From a virus (Duplodnaviria; Caudoviricetes), in the IMG/VR virus record IMGVR_UViG_3300048997_000104, positions 1 to 53,952 of that record: a stretch of 53,952 nucleotides of DNA; one strand, 5' to 3'. Positions 8,434 to 53,952 of this stretch are shown here, piece after piece. The stretch's first letter is position 1. Each line of letters begins with the position of its first letter. The notes under the pieces are model-generated. The model saw only the letters and a program-made list of their open reading frames with translations. It searched no databases and was not told the DNA's origin. The translations under genes and the position numbers were made by a program.

Positions 8434-11400
8434 TGGCAATTCCTGTCGTAATGGCGCTGGGAGCCGGTTGGGCGACCGGCACCATGGCTGGCGCGGCGAT
8501 TGGCTGGATGATCGGCTCGTGGATTTATTCCAGCCAGACCAAGGACAAGAACAACACCGCCGATCCGGCCATTGCGCAGGCTCCCAAATTCAACAGCGCC
8601 ATTCGCGGGATGGTCATCCCTGTTCTGTTCGGAACCAACCGAGTTGCCGCGCAAATCCCCTGGCAGAATAACTTTCAGGCGATCCGCAGCGACGGCAAGA
8701 GCGGCGGCGGCGGCAAGTTCGGCGGCTCTGGCATGGGCGGCAAGGGCAGCTCGACTTCTGCCGCCGCGTCCTACACCTACAAGATGGACGCCATCTACCA
8801 TCTGGGCATGCCTGATATGCCAGTCAATCTCCTGGCTGCCTGGATCGGCTCCGACCGCGTTGACCCGCAATCGTTGCTCAACATCACCTATGCGCCGATC
8901 AATCCAAACAATGGCGATGCCAGCTCTGGTGTCCCAACGTCGGTTGATTTCACCGGCACCATCAGCTCGCTGCTCTCGACCGCCGCTCAGTCGCTGCGGA
9001 GCGATACCACGTCGCCAAATACGGTCAGCCTCACGTATGATGGCGCCATATTCTTCCCCGGTAACTCGCCTGACGAGGCGGCGACGTGGCCATACTTCAC
9101 GTCCGTGATCGGGCAACCAGTCCGCTTCCCGAGCACGTGCTGGGTCGGGTTCCAAGGGCTGAACCTAGGCTCCACGCCGTCGATGCCGCAGATCAGCTGG
9201 GAGATTGGCCCTGGCGCGGAAGGATTTGACTTCCAATCCGCGTTCATATCCAAGTCAGTCGATGCCAACGGTCCATACCTCAACTATGGCCATCAGGCTC
9301 TGGACAACTCTGGAACGCACGTTGTCTTCAATTCCAGTAGCATTGTTGGCTATAACCGGGATAGCACGATCGCATGGACGTGGAGCATTGCCGATTTCGC
9401 CACCGCGCTTGAGACTAATCGCGGTCTGGTTGGGTGGCTCGGCGCGGGCAACCTTGGCCTAGGCTTCAATGCCGTGGGGAGTTTCTTCAACGGCAAGTAT
9501 ATCATCATCAACGTCAACGGTCAGTCGGCGGACATTGGCTTTGTCAATGCCACAGTCGTCTGCGGCCCGAGGGCTGGGCTGGTCCCGACCATCCTCGGCG
9601 CGGTGCGCTATGAGCGCGACGCAACCGGCATCCCGTACCTGGCCTGCTTCCAGTTTGACATCTGCAATGCGCAGACTGAGAGCGATCCCATGTTCGTCCG
9701 AGGCAGCCTGGACATTGCCGGCGCTGATATGGGCATTGCTTTCATTCCGTCAGTCAGCGACATCATCACCGGCGTCTACAATAGCCCGCGCGTGGTCAAT
9801 GGCACGACGTTTGTCCAGGACGAGATTGTATACGCCAGCTACATTTTGCCTGGACTAAACTATGACAACCCAGAGGCGTTCTACTCCACCAACACCAGCT
9901 CCAAGGGCTTTGCGCTGCCGTCGTTTGGCCTGCTGGCAACGCCCAATACCTGCCTGCATTTCTATCTGGGTCGAGGCATTATGGAGAATGCCGACACCTA
10001 CACAGCTGCCAACATCAAGCCGGACAATCCACTCGGCGCGATGATCCGATTCAACATCGGCGAGATTTTCTTTGCTTCGTTCCATCCGCCGGTCGGCTCC
10101 AAGATGGTGCAGTCGTTCATCGACATCAGCACGCTTGAGATCGTCAATGAGAGCTTCATCGAGGTCACCGGCGGCAGCGACACCGGCATCACCACGCTCC
10201 CCTGGAAGGAGGAGTTCCAGAGCCAGGACGGAACGCCGAACACGCGCAACCAATATGGCTTGAGCCCATACGTCTATCGCTTCGACAATGGCGCATATCT
10301 GGTTGTCTTCACCCAGCTCAACCAGTTCGATGATTCGGTGACCAGCGACGGCCTGTATCCTCTCCAAATTCGCGCCTTTGTCTACAACCCGCTCAAGAGC
10401 ATCTTCCAGCAGATTGCTCATCAGGCTGGGTTCCTCTTCAGCATCGCCGACTGGGGCAGCTCAACCAAGGGCCTTGGCGTATCCAACGCGACCGTCGATG
10501 TCGACGTCAATCAAGACACGCAAGTGCTCACCATCTGGGGCGACAACGGCTTCACCGGCCTCGACAGCGGCATGGGCAACGGCCATCACTGGGTGGCGCA
10601 AGCCGGCACGCTCACCCTGACGGGCGGCGCTGACGTCTACCCGCCTTACATCATCAAGCAAATCCTGACCAATGCCATCTACTCGCCGTTTGGCTCGCTG
10701 ATCACCGTCGACACGCTCGACCTGGACAGCTATAACTTTGCCGTCGACTACTGCGCAGCCCAGGACATCAAAGTGTCCACGCAGTATCGGAATGAAGAGA
10801 ACGTGCTGACGACCATCGAGCTACTGCTGGCACTGTACGGCGGCTACTTGACGATCAGCGGCGGCAAGATCAAGTTTGGCGTCATCGAGGCGACGGCACA
10901 GCCGATCCGCGTCATCGACAACAGCCACCTTCTGGTCGACAGCGTCGGCGATCCGCCGGTGACATCGACGCGCGGAGCCAAGCAAGACACCTTCAATTTG
11001 ATTCGCGTCAACTACATTGACCGCACCCTTGACTACAATCAAGAACAGATCGAGGAAGGGGATGAGGTTGACCAGGATTTGTACGGCATCCGTCTGAAGG
11101 AGTTTCCGCCGCAGTTCGTTATGACCGAGACACTGGCGCGCACCTTGGCGCTGCGCACGCTCTGGTCCAACTTGTTCGTACGTGACAGCCACTCCTTCAA
11201 GCTTGGCTGGAAGGACGCGGACCTGGAGCCGGGCGACGTCATCACCTTGGTCGACAGCATCTCTGTCCCGCCGCTCAACCAGAATGTCCGCATCGTCAAA
11301 TGGCAGGAGGAGAAGCGCGGCAGGTTCACCGTCCAGGCAGTCCAGGAGCTTGGCTACGCGATGACTGCTGTTGGCTCGCTCTTCAATCAGAGCAGTATGT

Positions 11401-15976: not shown

Positions 15977-16159
15977 ACCAGTACCGCCTTACGCGGGGGA
16001 ATTCAATTGCCCTGTGTGAGTATAGACATGATTCATAGCGGTAGCGGTAGCTGGTAGCTTTTGTAGGAGCCCATCTGTAACTGACTGTAGTCTTTACGGA
16101 TTGTTAATCCCTCCGCGTAAGGCTTCAACGCTACCGCTGTCTGCCCGGAAAGGTGCATT

Positions 16160-37936: not shown

Positions 37937-39455
37937 ATGTTATTCCTCACAATGACATGGCCTGATGGATACTCCGAGGATGTCTCTGTTTGCGACTTTG
38001 ACTTTTCTGACAAGGCAACGGCCACCCTTGCTTTGGCAATAGAGCATATCACCGTGCGCGTCGGAGCATCCCATCGAGCCCATCCTGACGTTGAGTCAGC
38101 AATACGGTGCGATTGGAAGCTAGTGGAGTAAATCATGAGCAACGCAACTATCATAGCGCAAAGCGTGCGCATTCGCCAGCTTCAAACGAAGCTAACATCT
38201 GCGTCAAGCGCGCTCGACCGCGTTTGGGAAGCCATCTGGATCATAGACCATAATCTGCTGCCCGGTCTTGACGAAGCGCCAGATGATACGGCTGAGCAGG
38301 CCAAGATGATGATCGAGGCCGTCAACAAGATGGGCAGCACATGGGAGCAAAGGCCATGATCACGCTCAAAGAGTTGTTGGACATAAGCGAGAAGGGCGCG
38401 CGCAAGAACATCAAGAACCAGCCACGCGGCCAGTTAATGCCTACATTCATCGGCGTACCCGAATCAGGCGAAGTGCTCATCATCGGCGCTCCATTCAACG
38501 GCGACTTGGAAAAGCAAATGGTGATTGCTACAGTACGCGCCAAATTCCGCGAATGCAACATCAAGGCATATGCTATGGTCAGCGAGTGCTGGCTGTCTAT
38601 TCGCGCAAACATGGATGAAGTGCGTCGCGGCCCGAGGCCTGGCCTAGACCCAGATCGTCAAGAGGCAGTCGCCATCGTCGCATCTGATGGCTTCAACAGC
38701 CTCGCCCGGTATCTGCGCATGGAGCGAGATTCAATCGGCAACGTCATCAAACTGATCAAAGACCCGCCAGAAGATGTGGCTGATTCATCTGGTCGGTTTC
38801 TTAACATCCTCAGCAACGAGGCATAACATGAAACTTACACCAGCGCAGATCGAATTGCTCGAAGCGTTACGCGACAAAAGCGAGGCGCACATCCTCAACA
38901 TGAGCGAGCTCATCGGCCTCGCCGCCGCCGCTGCTCGCAATCCAGAGTCAGCCGCGTCGCATCGCGTCGAAATCGCGCCATACAAATTCATGTACACCGT
39001 CCAGCGCCATGAGACCGCGCTCACCAGGCATTTCTCAGTCAGCGTGCGAGGCCGCACATTCACCATTCAAGACGAGCACGACATCCAGCCAGTCCTGCGC
39101 ATCTTCGACCTAGATGCTCAAGCACGCGTTCGCGCCAATCGCGCCATCACCACACTCAAATGGCGCGACGACCAGTGGCAATACGTCGAGCTGATCCCAT
39201 TCAAACCGCACAGCCCATGATGTGCACCATACCGGGATTCATCGGGTGAAATCGAGCGAGGGTATTATGGCAAAAGGCAAAAGACAGTTCTTGGTTACAT
39301 TGACTGACGCGGCGAGTTATGACACTGTTTCGAGTTCCAGCGCGAGTTCTACTCTGGAAAACGTTACTGCGCAAATAATGGCTCAACATCTTCGCAAATT
39401 GTTCAACCCTGATGTCGTTACCGCTGTCGAGGTTACGTACATTCAGGCAAGCTGA
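37937..39455 (+). other. Small hypothetical genes (37937-38131, 38135-38359, 38356-38826, 38828-39220, 39267-39455)
   Basis: Closely packed ORFs with RBS-like sites. Confidence 0.5.
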
Positions 39456-40331
39456 AACATCTATGGAAAACATCTGATCAAAAACATCTGCCAAAATTAC
39501 AGTACGAGGATTTAGCGTATCAGCGTACGCTTCCATAAGTTAGTGCACCGGGGTACGCGCTGATATCAACAACTTACGAGAGGGGTATGTTCCCGCTACT
39601 TACTAGGAGAATTCAATTGCCTGTTGTATGTATAGAAGTGATTTTGTGAGGTATGAGGTAGCGGTAGCTATGGAGTGGAAGATGAAGAGATATATGTTCT
39701 GGGTGTTATATGGTATCGTGCTTGGATTATTGGTAGCTGATATTGTAATCAGCATAACCGGGTTAAGTGTTAGGTGGAGCGTAGGTGAGTGATCTTTAGT
39801 GCTTGCTGCTTCAATTGCCTGTACGGACAGTAGAGATACGAATGTTCTATATAGCTGATGAGGGAGCGAGCGCGCCTGCCCGGTATAGTGTGGTGGAGGC
39901 TGAATGAATAATGGTGATGGCGGAGACGATCCCAATGTCGCTGGCTGAAGGCCGTAACCAGTCATGAAATCCACACCAGTCACACGCCACGATGAACTTC
40001 AGGCCCTTCAAAACCAGTTCGCGTCGCGCTATGTGGCGACCTGTATTACACATGCATTGTGGCGTGCTGAAATTCACATGCTGAAAAACAAAACAGCATT
40101 TTCGCTGATTACCCATAAAATTCAATACATTAAGGTTAACAACTAAAATGTTTGACTAATCAGAGACGATTGTTTGTTCGCTCCGTTGACTCTATATCTA
40201 GGCGCTCGGGCAAACTGTAGATGGCTGAATTGCCTAAAACTTTATGCGATAGTTGTTTGCTCGGGCATGGTTTGGGCGTACGATACTTGGGTTGGCGCGG
40301 ATAGTCCGGGCCACGAGAGATGGAGAGAAAT

Positions 40332-40862
40332 ATGAATCGCGTTGGTTTCAAAGGTTTCCGCCGTCCTGAGCCGATCACTGCCGATGCCTTCACGAAGGCG
40401 GTGGATCGTCTCGAAATCTCCAACCTGTTTGTCTACTGGACAGGTTCGCCCTACAAGAGCCGGGCTGCGTCGCTTCGGTCGAATGCTCTGAAGACCATCA
40501 CCGAAGTGAAGACGCCCGTTCCGGTCAGCACGTTGCTCGACCGCGCCGCGCACTTGGATGGCGAAATCGGCTACAAGCCGGAAGTGGTGAAGTCTGGTCT
40601 GTACCTTCACCGCAATTCCAAGCCGGCAGTCTACTTTGCGCTGGAGCGCAAGGAAGATGGTTCCTTCGTCGCCGCCACGGATGTCCCGTACGCGGATGGC
40701 TTCCCCGGTGGCCTGAAGAAAGGCGCCACAGTTATCGCGGCTGGTACTGCTACCAAGCAGATCGCTTCGCCCAAGAAGCCAGCGCAGATCGCGGCACCGG
40801 CGACCGACCAGCCCAAACTCGTAAAGGGCAACCGCCGTAAGGCGCAACAGCCGACTGCTTAA
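40332..40862 (+). CDS. Hypothetical basic protein
   Basis: GAGAGATGGAGAG leader; hairpin terminator 40885-40913. Confidence 0.7.
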   Translation: MNRVGFKGFRRPEPITADAFTKAVDRLEISNLFVYWTGSPYKSRAASLRSNALKTITEVKTPVPVSTLLDRAAHLDGEIGYKPEVVKSGLYLHRNSKPAVYFALERKEDGSFVAATDVPYADGFPGGLKKGATVIAAGTATKQIASPKKPAQIAAPATDQPKLVKGNRRKAQQPTA

Positions 40863-40997
40863 TGCGCCTTTAACCAAAAAGCCTAGGGGCCAGAAAAACT
40901 GGCCCTTCCTTTTGCCTAAACGTTTATGCGAAGATTGTAGCCAAAGCCGAGGATGTGGCCTATATTCTTCTGTATAAACTGAGAGATGGAGAGTGAG

Positions 40998-41162
40998 ATG
41001 AACAAAGTGACCCCGATGAAACTGGCGAATGACCGTTCTTTCTCTTGGACTAAGGAACAGGTGAAGACCTTCATCGCAAAGACCCACCTGACGGACAATA
41101 CTGAGTCTTGGCGCCGCTTCTACAACGACACTTTCGGCGCTCCCACTTCCTTCCCTGCTTAA
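40998..41162 (+). CDS. 54-aa hypothetical protein (MNKVTPMKLAND...), absent from ORF track
   Basis: Same leader as the 40332 gene; hairpin 41179-41202. Confidence 0.6.
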   Translation: MNKVTPMKLANDRSFSWTKEQVKTFIAKTHLTDNTESWRRFYNDTFGAPTSFPA

Positions 41163-41377
41163 CTAAATCCATAGCATAGGCCCCAGTTGAAAAGCTGGGG
41201 CTTGTGTTATGACTAATACGTGTTATGAGTCGCCGGACCTCCTGTCACCTATTGACAAGCATGCAGGCCGAATTTCCAGGAATGGGCCACACACGTTCAT
41301 ATATTTTGCAAAAATGTAATTCACAAATCGGCCTAGACCGCTACACGCGCAAGCAGTATACTATGAGGTTTTGTTCC

Positions 41378-43394
41378 TCATATCCTGTGAATGATAGCGA
41401 TACCGGGCATCATACAGATGTTGAACTTATTCCCACAGCCATGACACTGGACGTTCTGGCAAGCACCGCCGCGCGGCCCATAGTGGAATTCGTCATCGCC
41501 GCAATCAGGGCACTTGCCAGGATTTGCCCAGTTCACAAACCTGTCGTAACGCAGAGGCTCCTGCTTAGCCTTCTTCACGCGGATCGGCCTGATTGCCCAC
41601 AGCAGGAGGCCAACCATCGCTGCTGCGCCGACAAATGCGGCCAGGAACTTGAGCAGAATGTCAATGGTCGTGTGCATCGCGCTTCTCCATCTTCACCTCC
41701 AGATCGAGCCGGATGCGCCTGAGCCTGCGCCATCTCCAGTAGCTCAGGGCGCACATGCAGATGGCCACGAGGAAGCCGAGTTTGGCGAGCATGTAGATAA
41801 ATGTGTCCATCGTCAGCACTCGCACTCTGTACCAACGGCGGCGAACCAGCCATGGTGCTCGCCGGATTTGGGAGCCTGCCCAGGCTTGTGGACGTAGGCA
41901 TGGACGCCGCGCTCAAATCCAGCCAATGGCTCTGGCACCAGCGTGACCTCCATGCCCCGCTTGGCTGCGCGACGTTTGATGTCTTCAACTGTATGCCAGT
42001 TGCAGCGCGTGAACTCGCTCATGAGTCGCGCCCGGTAATGGTGGTGTGCGCAGACCGGACTAGCACGCGCTTGTCGGTGCCCTCCAGTTTGGAGAGCAGG
42101 TCTTGCGCCAGGGCGATGACGCCATCGTTGTTGACGCCTTCGGCGCGGAATATCCAGGCACCGAGGAGGCCGCAGAGCCACCATCGCTGCTCGTCGCTGA
42201 CGGAGATGTAGTCTGCTTGAGATGTCCGATTGTAGTCCATGTCGAGCGTCTCTGGCTTGATGCCGACGATGCGCAGGCGGCAGAGGCCATCGACGTTGAC
42301 CCAGAGCGTGTCGCCCTCGGTCGAGTTCGCTGAGTGGATCGACAACTGTACGCCGTGCTCTGGCTTGTTGATGTCGATCATTCTGATCTCGCGTTCCATG
42401 CTTGTTCTCCTGAGTGACATCAATGCTGATCCATAATCAGCTTGTGGAAGTGCCAGGTCTTGTAGCCACCGCTCTCGATATGGTTCTGGGCGAACCGGAT
42501 GGCATTGTCAGCTGTGCCCATGGCCTCGGCGGAAGTGAAGATGCCCTGGTGGGCGACGATGACGAGCGGGCGGAACATCCCGATGGCTGTGCGTGTGCAT
42601 CCTGCTGATTCCATTATTCGTACCCCTGTAGATCGTGATATGCCCCCAGGCATGTGATGGCGTCGTTACTGCCCGCCGCGCGGAAGGCATTTTCGAGTGA
42701 AGCGTCGATGATAGCCAGCAAAGGCTTCAAATTGCCGGGGCTATCATCTTCCATGGCGATGCGCGCCCGCATAGAGGCGACACGGGCAATCTCCCGTGCC
42801 AACCCCTCTGCGAGATTGACGATGCGCTCAGGCACTCGCCGCACTCGCAATGCGAATGCCAGTGACCATGTAGATAAACTGCGAGCGCGCCTGCGGGTCT
42901 GCCTGCTCCCAGGACCGCATCATCGCATTGACCTGAGTGGCGATATTCCCAGTCAGGTTAGACTGATCGCGCAACTTGGTGATCGGCACCACCTTGGTGC
43001 CATTGTCGATGGCCTTGCTGAGACCGCTGCCCAGCTTGCGCATCTTTTCGTCGCGGCGCTTGGCTTTGCGCGCTGAGTCAACGATGAGCTTCTCAGGATT
43101 TGCCGAGAAGCCGACGCTGATGTAAGAGAGCAGGGTGCCGCGCGTGTACCGCTTCCCAGTTGCGCTCTGGATGTTGGTGGTGCACCACTTGACAAATTTC
43201 GCGGCATCACCGTTTGCTTTGCGCCCCTGCCGTGGCCGTTGCCCGACTATGATCATGTAGACCACCGCGAGCCTTTTGCAAAAGGCTACGCGGGAGCCTT
43301 GTCGAAGCCTGGCCAGCTCATTAAGCTCGCCCTTGAGCTCGTCCAGCGACGCATCGCTTGACGGGTCAAGTAGCAGGGACTCAATGCGCGTCAT
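41378..43394 (-). other. Minus-strand operon of hypothetical genes (41378-41677, 41661-41810, 41813-42022, 42019-42423, 42420-42614, 42614-42850, 42828-43394)
   Basis: Coupled ORFs; 41378-41677 has a TM segment plus CxxC..CxxC; 41661-41810 is a TM peptide. Confidence 0.55.
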
Positions 43395-43395
43395 A

Positions 43396-43746
43396 TTACT
43401 TATGGACAATTTCCATCTCCTGGGATTGGGTTGTGAGTTGTTTGGTGCGGATGATGTCTTCGATGTACGCCCGCTTGCGTTCAATTCCTTCGGCGCTGAA
43501 AATGAAGCAAAGTTCTGTTTCATTGACGCCGAAGAACTTGCCCAGCATGTCGTATAGCCCGCAAGGCGAGCCGTAATGGGCGGCAGGGAAGCCCATGTCG
43601 ATAAGCAGCTGGTCGTGGCGAGCCTCATTCCAGAGGCAGGTGCTCCACTCGCTTTGCTGGCCTGGCCTCATCGCATTGGCCAGTTTGTGGAGCTGGTTGA
43701 GCCGCTCGAATTGTGAGGCCATAGGCGAGACGATGCTGCCGTCCAT
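43396..43746 (-). CDS. Hypothetical protein, paralog B
   Basis: Shares SPMASQFERLN, W..CLW.EA.HD.L, FFGV with neighbour. Confidence 0.75.
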   Translation of the reverse strand: MDGSIVSPMASQFERLNQLHKLANAMRPGQQSEWSTCLWNEARHDQLLIDMGFPAAHYGSPCGLYDMLGKFFGVNETELCFIFSAEGIERKRAYIEDIIRTKQLTTQSQEMEIVHK

Positions 43747-44087
43747 CAGACAACCTCCTCGATGCGGGATTGTTGCCTGAGAGCCAGCAGCTTCGCTGCC
43801 AGATAGTTGCGCTTGACCAGCATGTCTTGACCACTGAAGATATGGTCAATTTCCACGGAGCTGACGCCAAAGAACTCCCTCAGCGGTTCATATGCCACAG
43901 GACCGCCGATATTGTCGCACCGCGTCGGCAGTCCCATGCTCACGAGCAGCTTGTCGTGAACGGCCTCAGCCCAGAGGCAGCTTCCCCACTCCCTTTGGTC
44001 AGCGTTTGATTTTTTGGACAGCTCATAGAGCCGGTTGAGCCGCTCGAATTGAGAGGCCATTGGCGAGACTAGGACATTTCCATCCAT
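43746..44087 (-). CDS. Hypothetical protein, paralog A
   Basis: As above; GGAGG RBS. Confidence 0.75.
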   Translation of the reverse strand: MDGNVLVSPMASQFERLNRLYELSKKSNADQREWGSCLWAEAVHDKLLVSMGLPTRCDNIGGPVAYEPLREFFGVSSVEIDHIFSGQDMLVKRNYLAAKLLALRQQSRIEEVV

Positions 44088-44213
44088 TTCCACCTCCAAA
44101 TTGCCGCCTACCCCTTATTATCGCGTGATTACAAGTCTGAAGCAAGTGATAAGATTGAGGAACAAGCCAATATATCCACTTTTTGGCGCATTTTATTCAG
44201 GATATACTTAATA

Positions 44214-44277
44214 AGTTGGAATTAGGCACTTGACCGGCAGCGTATTGATCTCCATCTCTCCGCTGCCGGTCTTTTTT
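44214..44277 (+). ncRNA. Candidate small RNA (hairpin with anti-RBS loop plus U-tract)
   Basis: TATACT at 44203-44208; 11-bp stem 44232-44242 / 44261-44271; T6. Confidence 0.45.
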
Positions 44278-44318
44278 CTGCTAGACGTTTGTAGGCCTGC
44301 TGGAGTATGCTATGCAGC

Positions 44319-44819
44319 ATGGCCGCGAAAACCGACTTCAAACTTGGTCAGGCGATTGACTCCGCACTCGGCGGCGGCACAAACACACCACTTGTGTATC
44401 TGCCGCCCGGTCAACGCACTCAGACGCGAGTGAACAAGCCAACCAAGTTGGACGTCAAGGACCAATTGATCCGCATCCAGCACGAGGCTGACCCGGTGGG
44501 GTTCCTCATTGCCGCGATGAATGGCGAGGCATTCCAAGTCCACATCATCACCGAGGGCGGCGAGCAAATCTCCGTGCCGATGCAAGCCTCCATGAAGGAT
44601 CGCATCAAGATCGCAATGCATCTGGCTGACAAGCTGATGCCGAACCTCAACCTCCACAAGCACATCACCCCGCCTGGCGGCGACGGCAATAGTGGCCAGC
44701 TACCGGGCGCGAGCGGCATGACGTTCGCTCAGATGGTGGCAAAGGCATCCAGCAACGCTGATCACGCGCCGAAGGCCAAAGTCACCACCGTGGATGAGCA
44801 AGGGAACGTGGAAGAATGA
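44319..44819 (+). CDS. Putative terminase small subunit
   Basis: 'DPVGFL..AM.....RI..A..L'; upstream of TerL. Confidence 0.5.
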   Translation: MAAKTDFKLGQAIDSALGGGTNTPLVYLPPGQRTQTRVNKPTKLDVKDQLIRIQHEADPVGFLIAAMNGEAFQVHIITEGGEQISVPMQASMKDRIKIAMHLADKLMPNLNLHKHITPPGGDGNSGQLPGASGMTFAQMVAKASSNADHAPKAKVTTVDEQGNVEE

Positions 44820-44895
44820 TCAGCTGGATGGCGGTCGGCGGCGTGACCGTATTCGTGCTCGTCTGCACACACATCTTTATCAGGAGCCTTGACCA

Positions 44896-45189
44896 ATGTT
44901 GAGAATTTTGGCTATGCTGATCGAGCGAGTGCCCTACAACGCATTCTGGGCAATCGACTGCTTCTTCTCTGCCATCACCGGCGGCGACAAGGGCGAGACC
45001 ATCAGCGCGCGGCTCTGGGGCCAACAGCTGAAAGTGGGCATCTACGGCTGGCCCGCGCGGATCGCCCAGAAGGCCCTGGACGGAGTTGTCCTTCTGTTCT
45101 TCGGCCAGAAAGATCACACCAAGTCGTCTTATGACGAGTTCTTGCTGGTCAAGGCGGCTCGCGCCGCTGCCGCCGCACTCGTCAAGTAG
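44896..45189 (+). CDS. Hypothetical phage protein
   Basis: 'D......GGD..ETISAR' motif. Confidence 0.6.
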   Translation: MLRILAMLIERVPYNAFWAIDCFFSAITGGDKGETISARLWGQQLKVGIYGWPARIAQKALDGVVLLFFGQKDHTKSSYDEFLLVKAARAAAAALVK

Positions 45190-45205
45190 CCCTGGCGGCC
45201 TCGAT

Positions 45206-46786
45206 ATGAGCGAAACAATGATCAAGGCGCTGTCCTATTGGCGCGCCAATCCTGTCGAGGCCGTTAAGGACTGGTTCAATGTCACGCCTGAAGATTACCA
45301 AGGGGACATGCTGAATGACCTATTCGGATTGCACCATCGTGTCGCAGCCAAGAGCGCGCACGGTGTTGGCAAAACAACGGTTGAGTCGTGGGCTGCTTGG
45401 CTTTTTCTCACTACTCGTCCTCACCCCCGTGTTGTTGCTACTGCTCCCACCCAGAGTCAGCTCAAAGACATTCTATGGCCAGAAATGGCAAAGTGGGCAG
45501 AGAAATTTCCTCAAGAACTCCGATCAATGTGGGAAATCTCTGAAACTCATGTTCGCCACAAAGAATTCCCCAAAACATGGTTCGCCGTGGCACGTACGTC
45601 GAACAAGCAGGAGAACCTCCAAGGGTTCCACAACGATCACGTTCTAGTGCTGGTTGACGAGGCATCAGGCGTCCCTCAGCCAGTATTCGAGGTGATCGAA
45701 GGAATCATGACCAACGCGGATGAGCACGGGCTTGAAGCCAAGTTGCTCATGTGCGGGAACCCCACCCAGATTGCTGGGGAGTTCTACAATGCGTTCCACA
45801 AGAACCGCATATTGTATGGTCGTTACACTATCTCCGGCGACGTTGAGAAGCCAAAAGACCCGAACGGCGGCAAGATATACCTGTCTAAGCGTGTATCGTC
45901 GTCCTATCGGCAGACTATGGCGCGTAAGTATGGCGCAGCCTCGTCTGTATATGACGTGCGTGTGCGCGGAGTGTTCCCGCTCGCGGCGGATGGCGCAGTC
46001 ATCCCGATCGCATGGGCTGAAGCGGCGCAATACCTCAATGTGCCTGTCTTTGATCCGATTGCCGATCCTCTGGTGCTGGTCATGGACGTGGCTCGGTTCG
46101 GCGGCGATGAAACGGTCCTGGCATGGTTCCGTAGAAATCACTGCGTCAGAATGCAGGCGTGGCCGAAGACATCCATTAACGAATGTGTTGATATCTTGTG
46201 GGACGCAACAAAACAGAGTAGCGTTCAAGTATCTCGCATTGTCGTTGATGAGCCCGGTATCGGCGGCGGTGTGGTCGATGTCGCGCGTCGTGCTGGACTT
46301 GCGATTAGCCCATACAACGGCGGTGCTGCGCTCAAGGTCGAGAATGGTGACCCGGAGGAAGATGTAAGAATGTTCGCAAACCGGCGCAGCCGCGATTGGT
46401 GGCGCGTTCGGCGGTATCTGGAAAAATCTCTGACCAAGCTTCCAGTGGATGAGGTGCTCATTAACCAGCTCGCCTCTGTGAAGTATGTTTACAACCAGAA
46501 AGAGAAGATTCAGGTTGAGTCCAAGAGCGATATGCGCGAGCGACTTGGCGAGGAAGCATCGCCTGACCGCGCTGACGTGATCGTTATGGGCCTAGCCCCT
46601 TTCTACAGCTTGGAAAACGCGGTCCCGCTTGAACTGCTAGACTGGGCAAACGGAACAGTCTACGGTTCAAACCGGCCCACAGCAGAGATGGATTTTGGCG
46701 ATGGCACGAAAGAACCAGGCCTCGGCAACCACTGGTCAGAGCACCCCTTCGACCGGAGCGGCGGCGGCAGCCCCGGCGGCTTCTAA
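45206..46786 (+). CDS. terL: Terminase large subunit
   Basis: 'AHGVGKT', 'APT..Q', 'DEASG', 'GNP', 'DVARFGGD', 'SPDRAD'. Confidence 0.93.
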   Translation: MSETMIKALSYWRANPVEAVKDWFNVTPEDYQGDMLNDLFGLHHRVAAKSAHGVGKTTVESWAAWLFLTTRPHPRVVATAPTQSQLKDILWPEMAKWAEKFPQELRSMWEISETHVRHKEFPKTWFAVARTSNKQENLQGFHNDHVLVLVDEASGVPQPVFEVIEGIMTNADEHGLEAKLLMCGNPTQIAGEFYNAFHKNRILYGRYTISGDVEKPKDPNGGKIYLSKRVSSSYRQTMARKYGAASSVYDVRVRGVFPLAADGAVIPIAWAEAAQYLNVPVFDPIADPLVLVMDVARFGGDETVLAWFRRNHCVRMQAWPKTSINECVDILWDATKQSSVQVSRIVVDEPGIGGGVVDVARRAGLAISPYNGGAALKVENGDPEEDVRMFANRRSRDWWRVRRYLEKSLTKLPVDEVLINQLASVKYVYNQKEKIQVESKSDMRERLGEEASPDRADVIVMGLAPFYSLENAVPLELLDWANGTVYGSNRPTAEMDFGDGTKEPGLGNHWSEHPFDRSGGGSPGGF

Positions 46787-53798: not shown

Positions 53799-53952
53799 GC
53801 TGGCCGACGTATTGGCGCGTTACACACCCATCGCGGACTTGGTAGGATCAGGCCCCTACAACGTGTCCTCGGTGAATGTGAACTCGGTGTATATCTCAGA
53901 CGCCGAGAGTTACATTGACGCTTTTCTGAGCGTCAAGTATGTGACGCCCATT
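53799..53952. repeat. Terminal direct repeat, copy 2
   Basis: Matches 1-154 with one mismatch. Confidence 0.95.

Follow-up and report, generated by a model that had tools for sequence, protein, structure and literature searches.

Base-pairing small RNAs (sRNAs) usually carry a hairpin followed by a U-tail as their 3′ module. RepG of Helicobacter pylori, a chromosomal example, measures about 87 nt, and the c4 RNA of the phages P1 and P7 is a small antisense RNA released by processing from the operon to which its target belongs. In lambdoid phages the late leader follows the PR′-tR′ (6S RNA) scheme, i.e. a terminator is located after the late promoter and before all late genes. StxS, the terminated late-leader RNA of Stx phages, is described as a by-product that can pair with mRNAs (PMC7547250). 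[quoted passage not shown] A review presents P22 sar and lambda OOP as phage antisense RNAs that block phage genes by base pairing (PMC12197685).

Here we analysed a window of 53,952 bp, which is a complete phage genome assembled from a soil metagenome. Ahead of its late operon we found a terminator-like hairpin with a loop that is complementary to two ribosome-binding sites (RBSs) of the same phage. The layout resembles PR′-tR′ and StxS in that the terminator would follow a late promoter and precede all late genes, although the promoter is putative here. In contrast to both systems, no Q-type antiterminator was found in the 50 proteins scanned, and there is no sequence or Rfam similarity. A further difference is that the candidate RNA described here would act on genes of its own phage and would carry its seed in the terminator loop. 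The latter feature is shared with RepG; however, RepG is chromosomal, targets a G-repeat rather than the region from the Shine-Dalgarno (SD) sequence to the AUG, and lacks homology to the candidate sRNA of this phage. While sar and OOP are cis-antisense RNAs transcribed opposite their targets and c4 shares an operon with its target, the sites considered here are 3.3-3.9 kb away. Type I antitoxin RNAs likewise pair at an mRNA RBS, as predicted here, but neither of our targets encodes a small hydrophobic toxin, and RNA and target loci are neither overlapping nor next to each other. No Rfam family, including the C4 antisense RNA, reaches its gathering score in the whole genome. A search of positions 39100-44400 at E<=1 gave one sub-threshold match, to an unrelated lncRNA family (19.7 bits vs a cut-off of 38).

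If the pairing is real, a lytic-type environmental phage would control genes of its own with the by-product of termination at its late promoter, the terminator loop being the seed. A leader sRNA of the StxS type and a loop seed of the RepG type, each known so far from a different system, would be joined. With one RNA of 63 nt and two targets of 12 nt, the model would be very small and simple to test. The conserved, unannotated family of gene 40332, found beside the late operon in related phages, would moreover stand out as regulated and possibly regulatory. If the pairing is not real, an ordinary leader terminator remains.

Genome organization and late operon

The first and last 154 nt of the record (1-154 and 53799-53952) are identical except for a single mismatch (127 C / 53925 T), and the contig in the one run that contains the phage comprises 53,798 nt. 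Therefore, the assembled genome is either circular or terminally redundant. The plus strand carries nearly all genes, the single exception being a minus-strand ORFan cassette at 41378-44099. The late operon spans ~25 kb, from 44.3 kb round to 16.0 kb, with just three gaps >55 nt, and has the order terS, terL, portal, protease/scaffold, capsid, tail, endolysin. Its first gene (44319-44819, plus strand) was assigned as terS by its position and by the occurrence of the same gene beside terL in relatives. terL (45086-46786) matches phrog_2 and was the sole match when ten neighbouring genes were submitted to family searches. The portal protein is of the Mu type (Portal_Mu), and the other matches among the late genes are a Mu-like protease/scaffold, a tail tube, a tape measure, tail proteins and a GH108 lysin. 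The late operon is followed by a replication module (SNF2 helicase, AEP primase, UvrD helicase, ThyX, MazG, RNase T-like exonuclease and DnaE-type polymerase) and then by small-gene units, each with its own promoter-like box. Most of the small proteins are ORFans. No RNA polymerase or antiterminator family was detected among 50 proteins scanned with Pfam (of ~72 predicted), and no antiterminator family among 10 proteins scanned with PHROGs. There is no sign of lysogeny, and no relative was found in 185,579 species genomes when these were searched with the family of gene 40332 (see below).

The first gene of the minus-strand cassette (43746-44087) has a promoter-like site, TTGCTT-17-GATAAT, at 44145-44117 and no homologue outside its own genome among 5.8 billion proteins. 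It is a paralogue of the second gene (43396-43746), the two sharing DNA repeats of 65 nt and 56 nt that are 75-86% identical. With regard to the promoter-like boxes, a long repeat of the form GAATTCAATTGCC...TATAGA...GGTAGC occurs at the head of the replication module (15985-16070) and before a small-gene unit (39594-39680). A shorter third variant of the GAATTCAATTGCC-type repeat is located at 39808-39835, and all three may belong to one promoter class. In the low-G+C small-gene region, a 36-codon ORF (39682-39792, plus strand) encodes a strongly hydrophobic product that could be a membrane peptide.

A terminator-like hairpin precedes the first late gene

Between the minus-strand cassette and terS lies a divergent gap of 231 nt, in which no plus-strand gene ends. 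Within this gap the initial annotation had described a TATACT box followed by an 11-bp stem, an 18-nt loop and a T6 tail, and on re-reading the sequence we found every one of these elements where it had been placed. The 5′ stem arm GACCGGCAGCG (44232-44242) and the 3′ stem arm CGCTGCCGGTC (44261-44271) form 11 uninterrupted base pairs, nine of them G-C, and enclose the loop TATTGATCTCCATCTCTC (44243-44260). The T6 tail (44272-44277) follows the G+C-rich stem directly, with no spacer, and ends 42 nt upstream of terS. When folded as RNA, the region 44203-44290 reaches -26.6 kcal/mol (z -3.06), a value equalled by 1 of 200 shuffled sequences. In the centroid fold the 11-bp stem is kept and a 3-bp helix forms within the loop, leaving a 4-nt apical loop.

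Stem and T tract thus have the arrangement of an intrinsic terminator, while the loop of 18 nt exceeds the 3-8 nt in the definition of the scan tool. The terminator scan missed the hairpin because its loop is far larger than in typical terminators. In a whole-genome scan for hairpins plus T-runs, it is the sole uninterrupted stem of at least 10 bp that abuts a T-run among the 8 candidates listed. The hairpin very probably terminates transcription. Since no plus-strand gene ends in the gap, a terminator at this position would act only on a transcript started within the gap. The predicted terminated leader RNA, which is also the candidate sRNA, has ~63 nt (44215-44277, plus strand); its 5′ end is placed by the position of the -10 hexamer and its 3′ end by T6. 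This RNA folds with -24.5 kcal/mol and retains the 11-bp stem.

The putative late-leader promoter element is weak. The -10-like hexamer TATACT (44203-44208, plus strand) lacks a -35 partner, since no pair that includes it reaches 8/12 against the sigma-70 hexamers, and the promoter scan did not list TATACT. A weak sigma-70-like match of 8/12, TAGACG-18-TATGCT (44282/44306), is situated downstream of T6 and could yield a near-leaderless terS mRNA that bypasses the hairpin.

Only distant relatives of the phage are available, with TerL identities of 57-69%. In three of the eight distinct lineages inspected, a terminator-like hairpin is present 14-21 nt before the first late gene (L001, L003 and L021; TerL 57-66% identical to that of the window), a layout like that of the window, where the hairpin comes before terS and the gap has no plus-strand gene on its upstream side. 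The L001 hairpin has the stem and loop dimensions of ours, i.e. an 11-bp stem and an 18-nt loop, followed by T5 and located 21 nt before the ATG. In L003 the distance to the first late gene is likewise 21 nt, and in L021 it is 14 nt with the SD sequence inside the gap. It is important to note that L001 and L021 have no room for a promoter after the T-run and that the ribosome-binding site lies inside the short gap. In these phages late transcription must therefore read through the hairpin, which is the main support for the hairpin being a gate. Such a hairpin is absent from the other five lineages (L004, L005, L012, L013 and L014, the last identical to L011).

Closer relatives were sought at several levels. 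A blastn search with 43700-45100 gave no match, and neither terS nor gene 40332 found a match by tblastn in the phage isolate collection. Viral contigs contained neither an exact copy of the hairpin nor a relative of terS, and among 5.8 billion proteins terS has one relative only, with 41% identity. A search for population variants in the contigs of X1-X3 returned the source contig and short unrelated pieces only.

The loop is complementary to two ribosome-binding sites

The 12-nt segment TCTCCATCTCTC of the loop (44249-44260) had been reported by the initial annotation to be the exact reverse complement of two RBS sites. This is correct, with 12 of 12 positions complementary to GAGAGATGGAGA in the SD regions of gene 40332 (site 1, 40315-40326) and gene 40998 (site 2, 40981-40992). 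Exactly three copies of GAGAGATGGAGA are present in the whole genome (53,952 bp), two at the plus-strand sites and one, on the minus strand, at 44249-44260; shuffled genomes contain 0.02 copies on average, and none of 100 reaches three. All three copies are in non-coding DNA. With 2 mismatches allowed, one extra site appears, in a coding region (25155), giving 4 matches vs 5.2 expected. Both plus-strand copies end 5 nt before the ATG and supply the GGAGA Shine-Dalgarno sequence. Toward site 1 the complementarity extends to 16 of the 18 loop positions (40315-40332); its two ends coincide with those of the loop, and the first base of the ATG takes part in it. The minus-strand copy, for its part, resembles an RBS followed by ACG at the position of the start codon.

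When the loop was paired with all 69 RBSs of the phage, the duplexes with gene 40332 (-23.9 kcal/mol) and gene 40998 (-21.8 kcal/mol) were the strongest, the next best reaching -16.8 kcal/mol. None of 300 shuffled loops attained -23.9 kcal/mol. After subtraction of the opening costs (2.8 kcal/mol for the loop and about 5 per target), the predicted net pairing is about -15 kcal/mol for 40332 and about -13 kcal/mol for 40998, and by this model it is in the range of real sRNA targets. No extended homology between the inverted copy and the upstream regions of the two genes was found beyond the 18 nt, and lenient alignment gave scores of 72, within the range of shuffled sequences (means 58-65, maxima 77-82). 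The partial matches that had been noted elsewhere are all weak: 9 nt before 41677, 8 nt near 43394 and 9 nt before the portal start (46684-46692) could be retrieved, but at 44087 there are about 6 contiguous nt only.

How far chance may account for the match depends on the background chosen. The match is very unusual relative to base composition and less unusual relative to the real genome. Among 107,870 windows of 18 nt, 117 (0.11%) contain a perfect antisense match of at least 12 nt to an RBS region. They fall into 15 clusters, 3 of which are the hairpin's own sites and 12 other places. Eighteen canonical 12-mers are present at least three times in the genome, and the complementarity was found post hoc. 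Moreover, the octamer GAGATGGA is the commonest 8-mer in the RBS regions of this phage (5 of 69, including those of the portal and of a tail-region gene) and occurs at 8 places in the genome. Due to this recurrence, a CU-rich loop matches RBSs more easily, and the loop mirrors a class of RBSs, with late genes as extra members, rather than a unique sequence. A second RBS class, A(A/G)GGGGCA(C), is found 0-6 nt before the ATG of at least 6 genes (2878, 15402, 18258, 23157, 32159 and 50874), most of which are the first gene after an intergenic gap.

The genes behind the complementary sites

Gene 40332 (40332-40862, plus strand) encodes a protein of 176 aa that belongs to a conserved phage family of 25 members with no function assigned. 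Homologues P0004-P0007 are 60-82% identical (82% for P0004, 60-67% for P0005-P0007), and no member was found in 185,579 species genomes. In L001, L011/L014, L012 and L013 the homologue adjoins the late operon and is divergent from it. The structure of the 40332 protein was predicted with a pLDDT of 79. Foldseek gave no match at E<=0.001, and VIA-align returned a best Z of 4.3 and many winged-helix domains at Z 3-4, which is too weak to name the fold. Gene 40998 (40998-41162, plus strand) encodes a hydrophilic protein of 54 aa without a family.

Upstream of both genes we recognized the box TTGCCTAAA-nn-TTTATGCGA-nnn-TTG, at 40230-40255 for gene 40332 and at 40912-40937 for gene 40998 (both plus strand). 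The box has 2 matches, where 0 are expected. Owing to this common box the two genes look co-regulated, and the two targets are paralogous modules. The target sites are therefore not independent and count as roughly one event. Both targets keep the same 13-mer, while the 42-59 nt between it and the upstream box are unrelated. With respect to the relatives, 40332 homologues were examined at 5 further loci, and the antisense matches to their RBSs are just 8-11 nt long, the 11-nt one being a same-strand repeat in a coding region. Antisense copies of these RBSs did not rise above chance in the relatives, which have no 12-mer in common. The loop of the L001 hairpin, paired with RBSs, reaches -15.8 kcal/mol at best, and 81% of 300 shuffles were as good.

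As a side observation, GGGCTTGTGTT is present at 41198-41208, after a hairpin that follows gene 40998. It occurs once each in L001 (6790-6800), L011/L014 (8860-8870) and L012 (2267-2277), where it is located upstream of the late operon.

Possible roles of the hairpin and its loop

The reading that accommodates most of these observations is that the hairpin is a Rho-independent leader terminator from which an RNA of ~63 nt is released and which polymerase has to pass for late transcription. We regard this reading as evenly balanced between right and wrong. RNA polymerase that started in the 231-nt gap would pass the hairpin before reaching terS, so that the hairpin would be a gate. Without read-through, transcription would stop at T6 and the ~63-nt RNA would be released, and with it, by leakiness or by a phage antitermination factor, the long late mRNA would be made. 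The promoter, termination itself and the control of read-through we infer; the anatomy and position of the hairpin, the lack of incoming plus-strand genes and the similar hairpins of three distant relatives are observed, and the lambdoid PR′-tR′ late leader offers a precedent. On the other hand, TATACT has no -35 element, the TAGACG-18-TATGCT site downstream of T6 may bypass the hairpin, and the Pfam scan of 50 proteins (of ~72) and the PHROGs scan of 10 revealed no antiterminator family. The loop is also far larger than is typical, and five of the eight related lineages do without such a hairpin. An extension that would dispense with a protein antiterminator is a timing switch made of RNA only, in which one and the same pairing of 12-18 nt would let the late leader control the 40332 and 40998 mRNAs and be controlled by them. 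The terminated leader RNA would block translation of the regulator-like 40332 and its neighbour. Conversely, abundant 40332 and 40998 mRNAs would pair with the nascent loop abutting the 3′ arm and hinder closure of the terminator, thereby licensing read-through into the 25-kb late operon in trans. We consider such a switch highly improbable.

Whether the complementarity itself has a function is a separate claim, compatible with the leader terminator. As the loop displays an exact anti-RBS sequence, the terminated RNA may act in trans on genes 40332 and 40998. With the terminator loop as seed it would pair from the SD sequence to the start codon and block the 30S subunit at both genes, which would be turned down once the late promoter fires. 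The initial annotation had predicted a trans-acting sRNA of this kind. Its terminator anatomy, its place at the head of the late operon, a complementarity beyond what composition explains and the predicted net energies of about -15 and -13 kcal/mol hold up; less favourable are the promoter, which is recognized by its -10 hexamer without a -35 element, and the analogous loop of L001, which has no RBS complementarity and pairs no better than shuffles. We tentatively keep the sRNA as a possibility that is rather doubtful. It is favoured by the 12/12 complementarity to both RBSs (16/18 for 40332), by duplexes (-23.9 and -21.8 kcal/mol) that stand well apart from the next best (-16.8) and were matched by 0 of 300 shuffled loops against a genomic background of 0.11%, by the non-coding location of all three copies, and by the 13-mer kept at both targets amid unrelated sequence of 42-59 nt. 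The hairpin with its U-tail also has the form of the usual sRNA 3′ module. StxS, a late-leader RNA that went from by-product to sRNA, sets a precedent, as do the antisense RNAs sar of P22 and OOP of lambda. However, the match was a post hoc find, 12 other places have antisense matches of at least 12 nt to an RBS region, and the 40332 homologues in 5 further loci show just 8-11 nt. A duplex of 12 bp within a closed loop of 18 nt would presumably be sterically demanding. Furthermore, because GAGATGGA recurs in 5 of 69 RBS regions and the weaker matches include the portal and a tail-region gene, i.e. late genes, the earlier suggestion that the RNA silences early genes fits poorly. A type I toxin-antitoxin pair, which had also been suggested, was dismissed. 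The targets encode a 176-aa protein of a conserved family and a hydrophilic 54-aa protein instead of small hydrophobic toxins, they are 3.3-3.9 kb off, and no gene next to the RNA is encoded opposite it. The complementarity may also lack any function, an explanation that falls only a little short of an even balance. The CU-rich loop would then mirror a recurrent RBS motif, in line with the 18 12-mers that recur at least three times and the 12 other antisense matches to RBS regions, or it would be the short footprint of a rearrangement that moved 40332 away from the late operon. The inverted copy occupies the place that the 40332 gene has in the relatives, next to the late operon and in the opposite orientation, and this copy resembles an RBS plus ACG. 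Yet a given 18-nt window has a chance of 0.11%, 0 of 300 shuffled loops match, and homology is limited to 18 nt in both directions, so that a relic would need to have eroded precisely to the loop; similarity that ends at the loop borders is more in keeping with selection acting on an exposed loop than with a relic of duplication. Improbable in our view is that the 12-mer is a double-stranded DNA operator and its position in the loop incidental. The regulator, which may be the winged-helix-like product of 40332, would then bind upstream of 40332 and of 40998 as well as within the late leader. Three exact, intergenic, orientation-independent copies would suit such an operator, the 40332 homologues that adjoin and diverge from the late operon in L001, L011/L014, L012 and L013 present a classic regulator-target layout, and the fold comparison (best Z 4.3) points weakly to winged-helix types. 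But the motif lacks palindromic symmetry and does not belong to any array of repeats, the relatives share no 12-mer, and the fold evidence is below any reliable threshold. The match at site 1, moreover, covers exactly the loop and not the stem, a border that a DNA site has no reason to respect.

Other elements beside the late operons

The hairpin is abutted by the 17-mer CAAGTGCCTAATTCCAA (44216-44232, minus strand), which is conserved as CAAGTRCCTAATYYCAA upstream of the late genes in L004 (334-350), L005 (855-871) and L021 (9328-9344). In these three lineages it has the sense of terS, whereas the window carries it in the reverse orientation. A search of viral contigs for CAAGTRCCTAATYYCAA retrieved 15 stretches, in which L005, L027 (identical to L004) and L021 were the only relatives and the other 12 were unrelated. 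A packaging site and a sigma-70 promoter were weighed by eye as readings of the 17-mer and dropped.

Beside the late operon, L003 (1-1150), L012 (2330-2800) and L014 (8900-9990) contain CTAG-rich stretches of odd composition with repeated RBS complements of the TAGCCTCCTATCT type. L014 also has, downstream of its 40332 homologue (10900-11200), an iteron-like array of GGTCT repeats and repeated GGGTCGTCATGCA units, which may be a replication origin.
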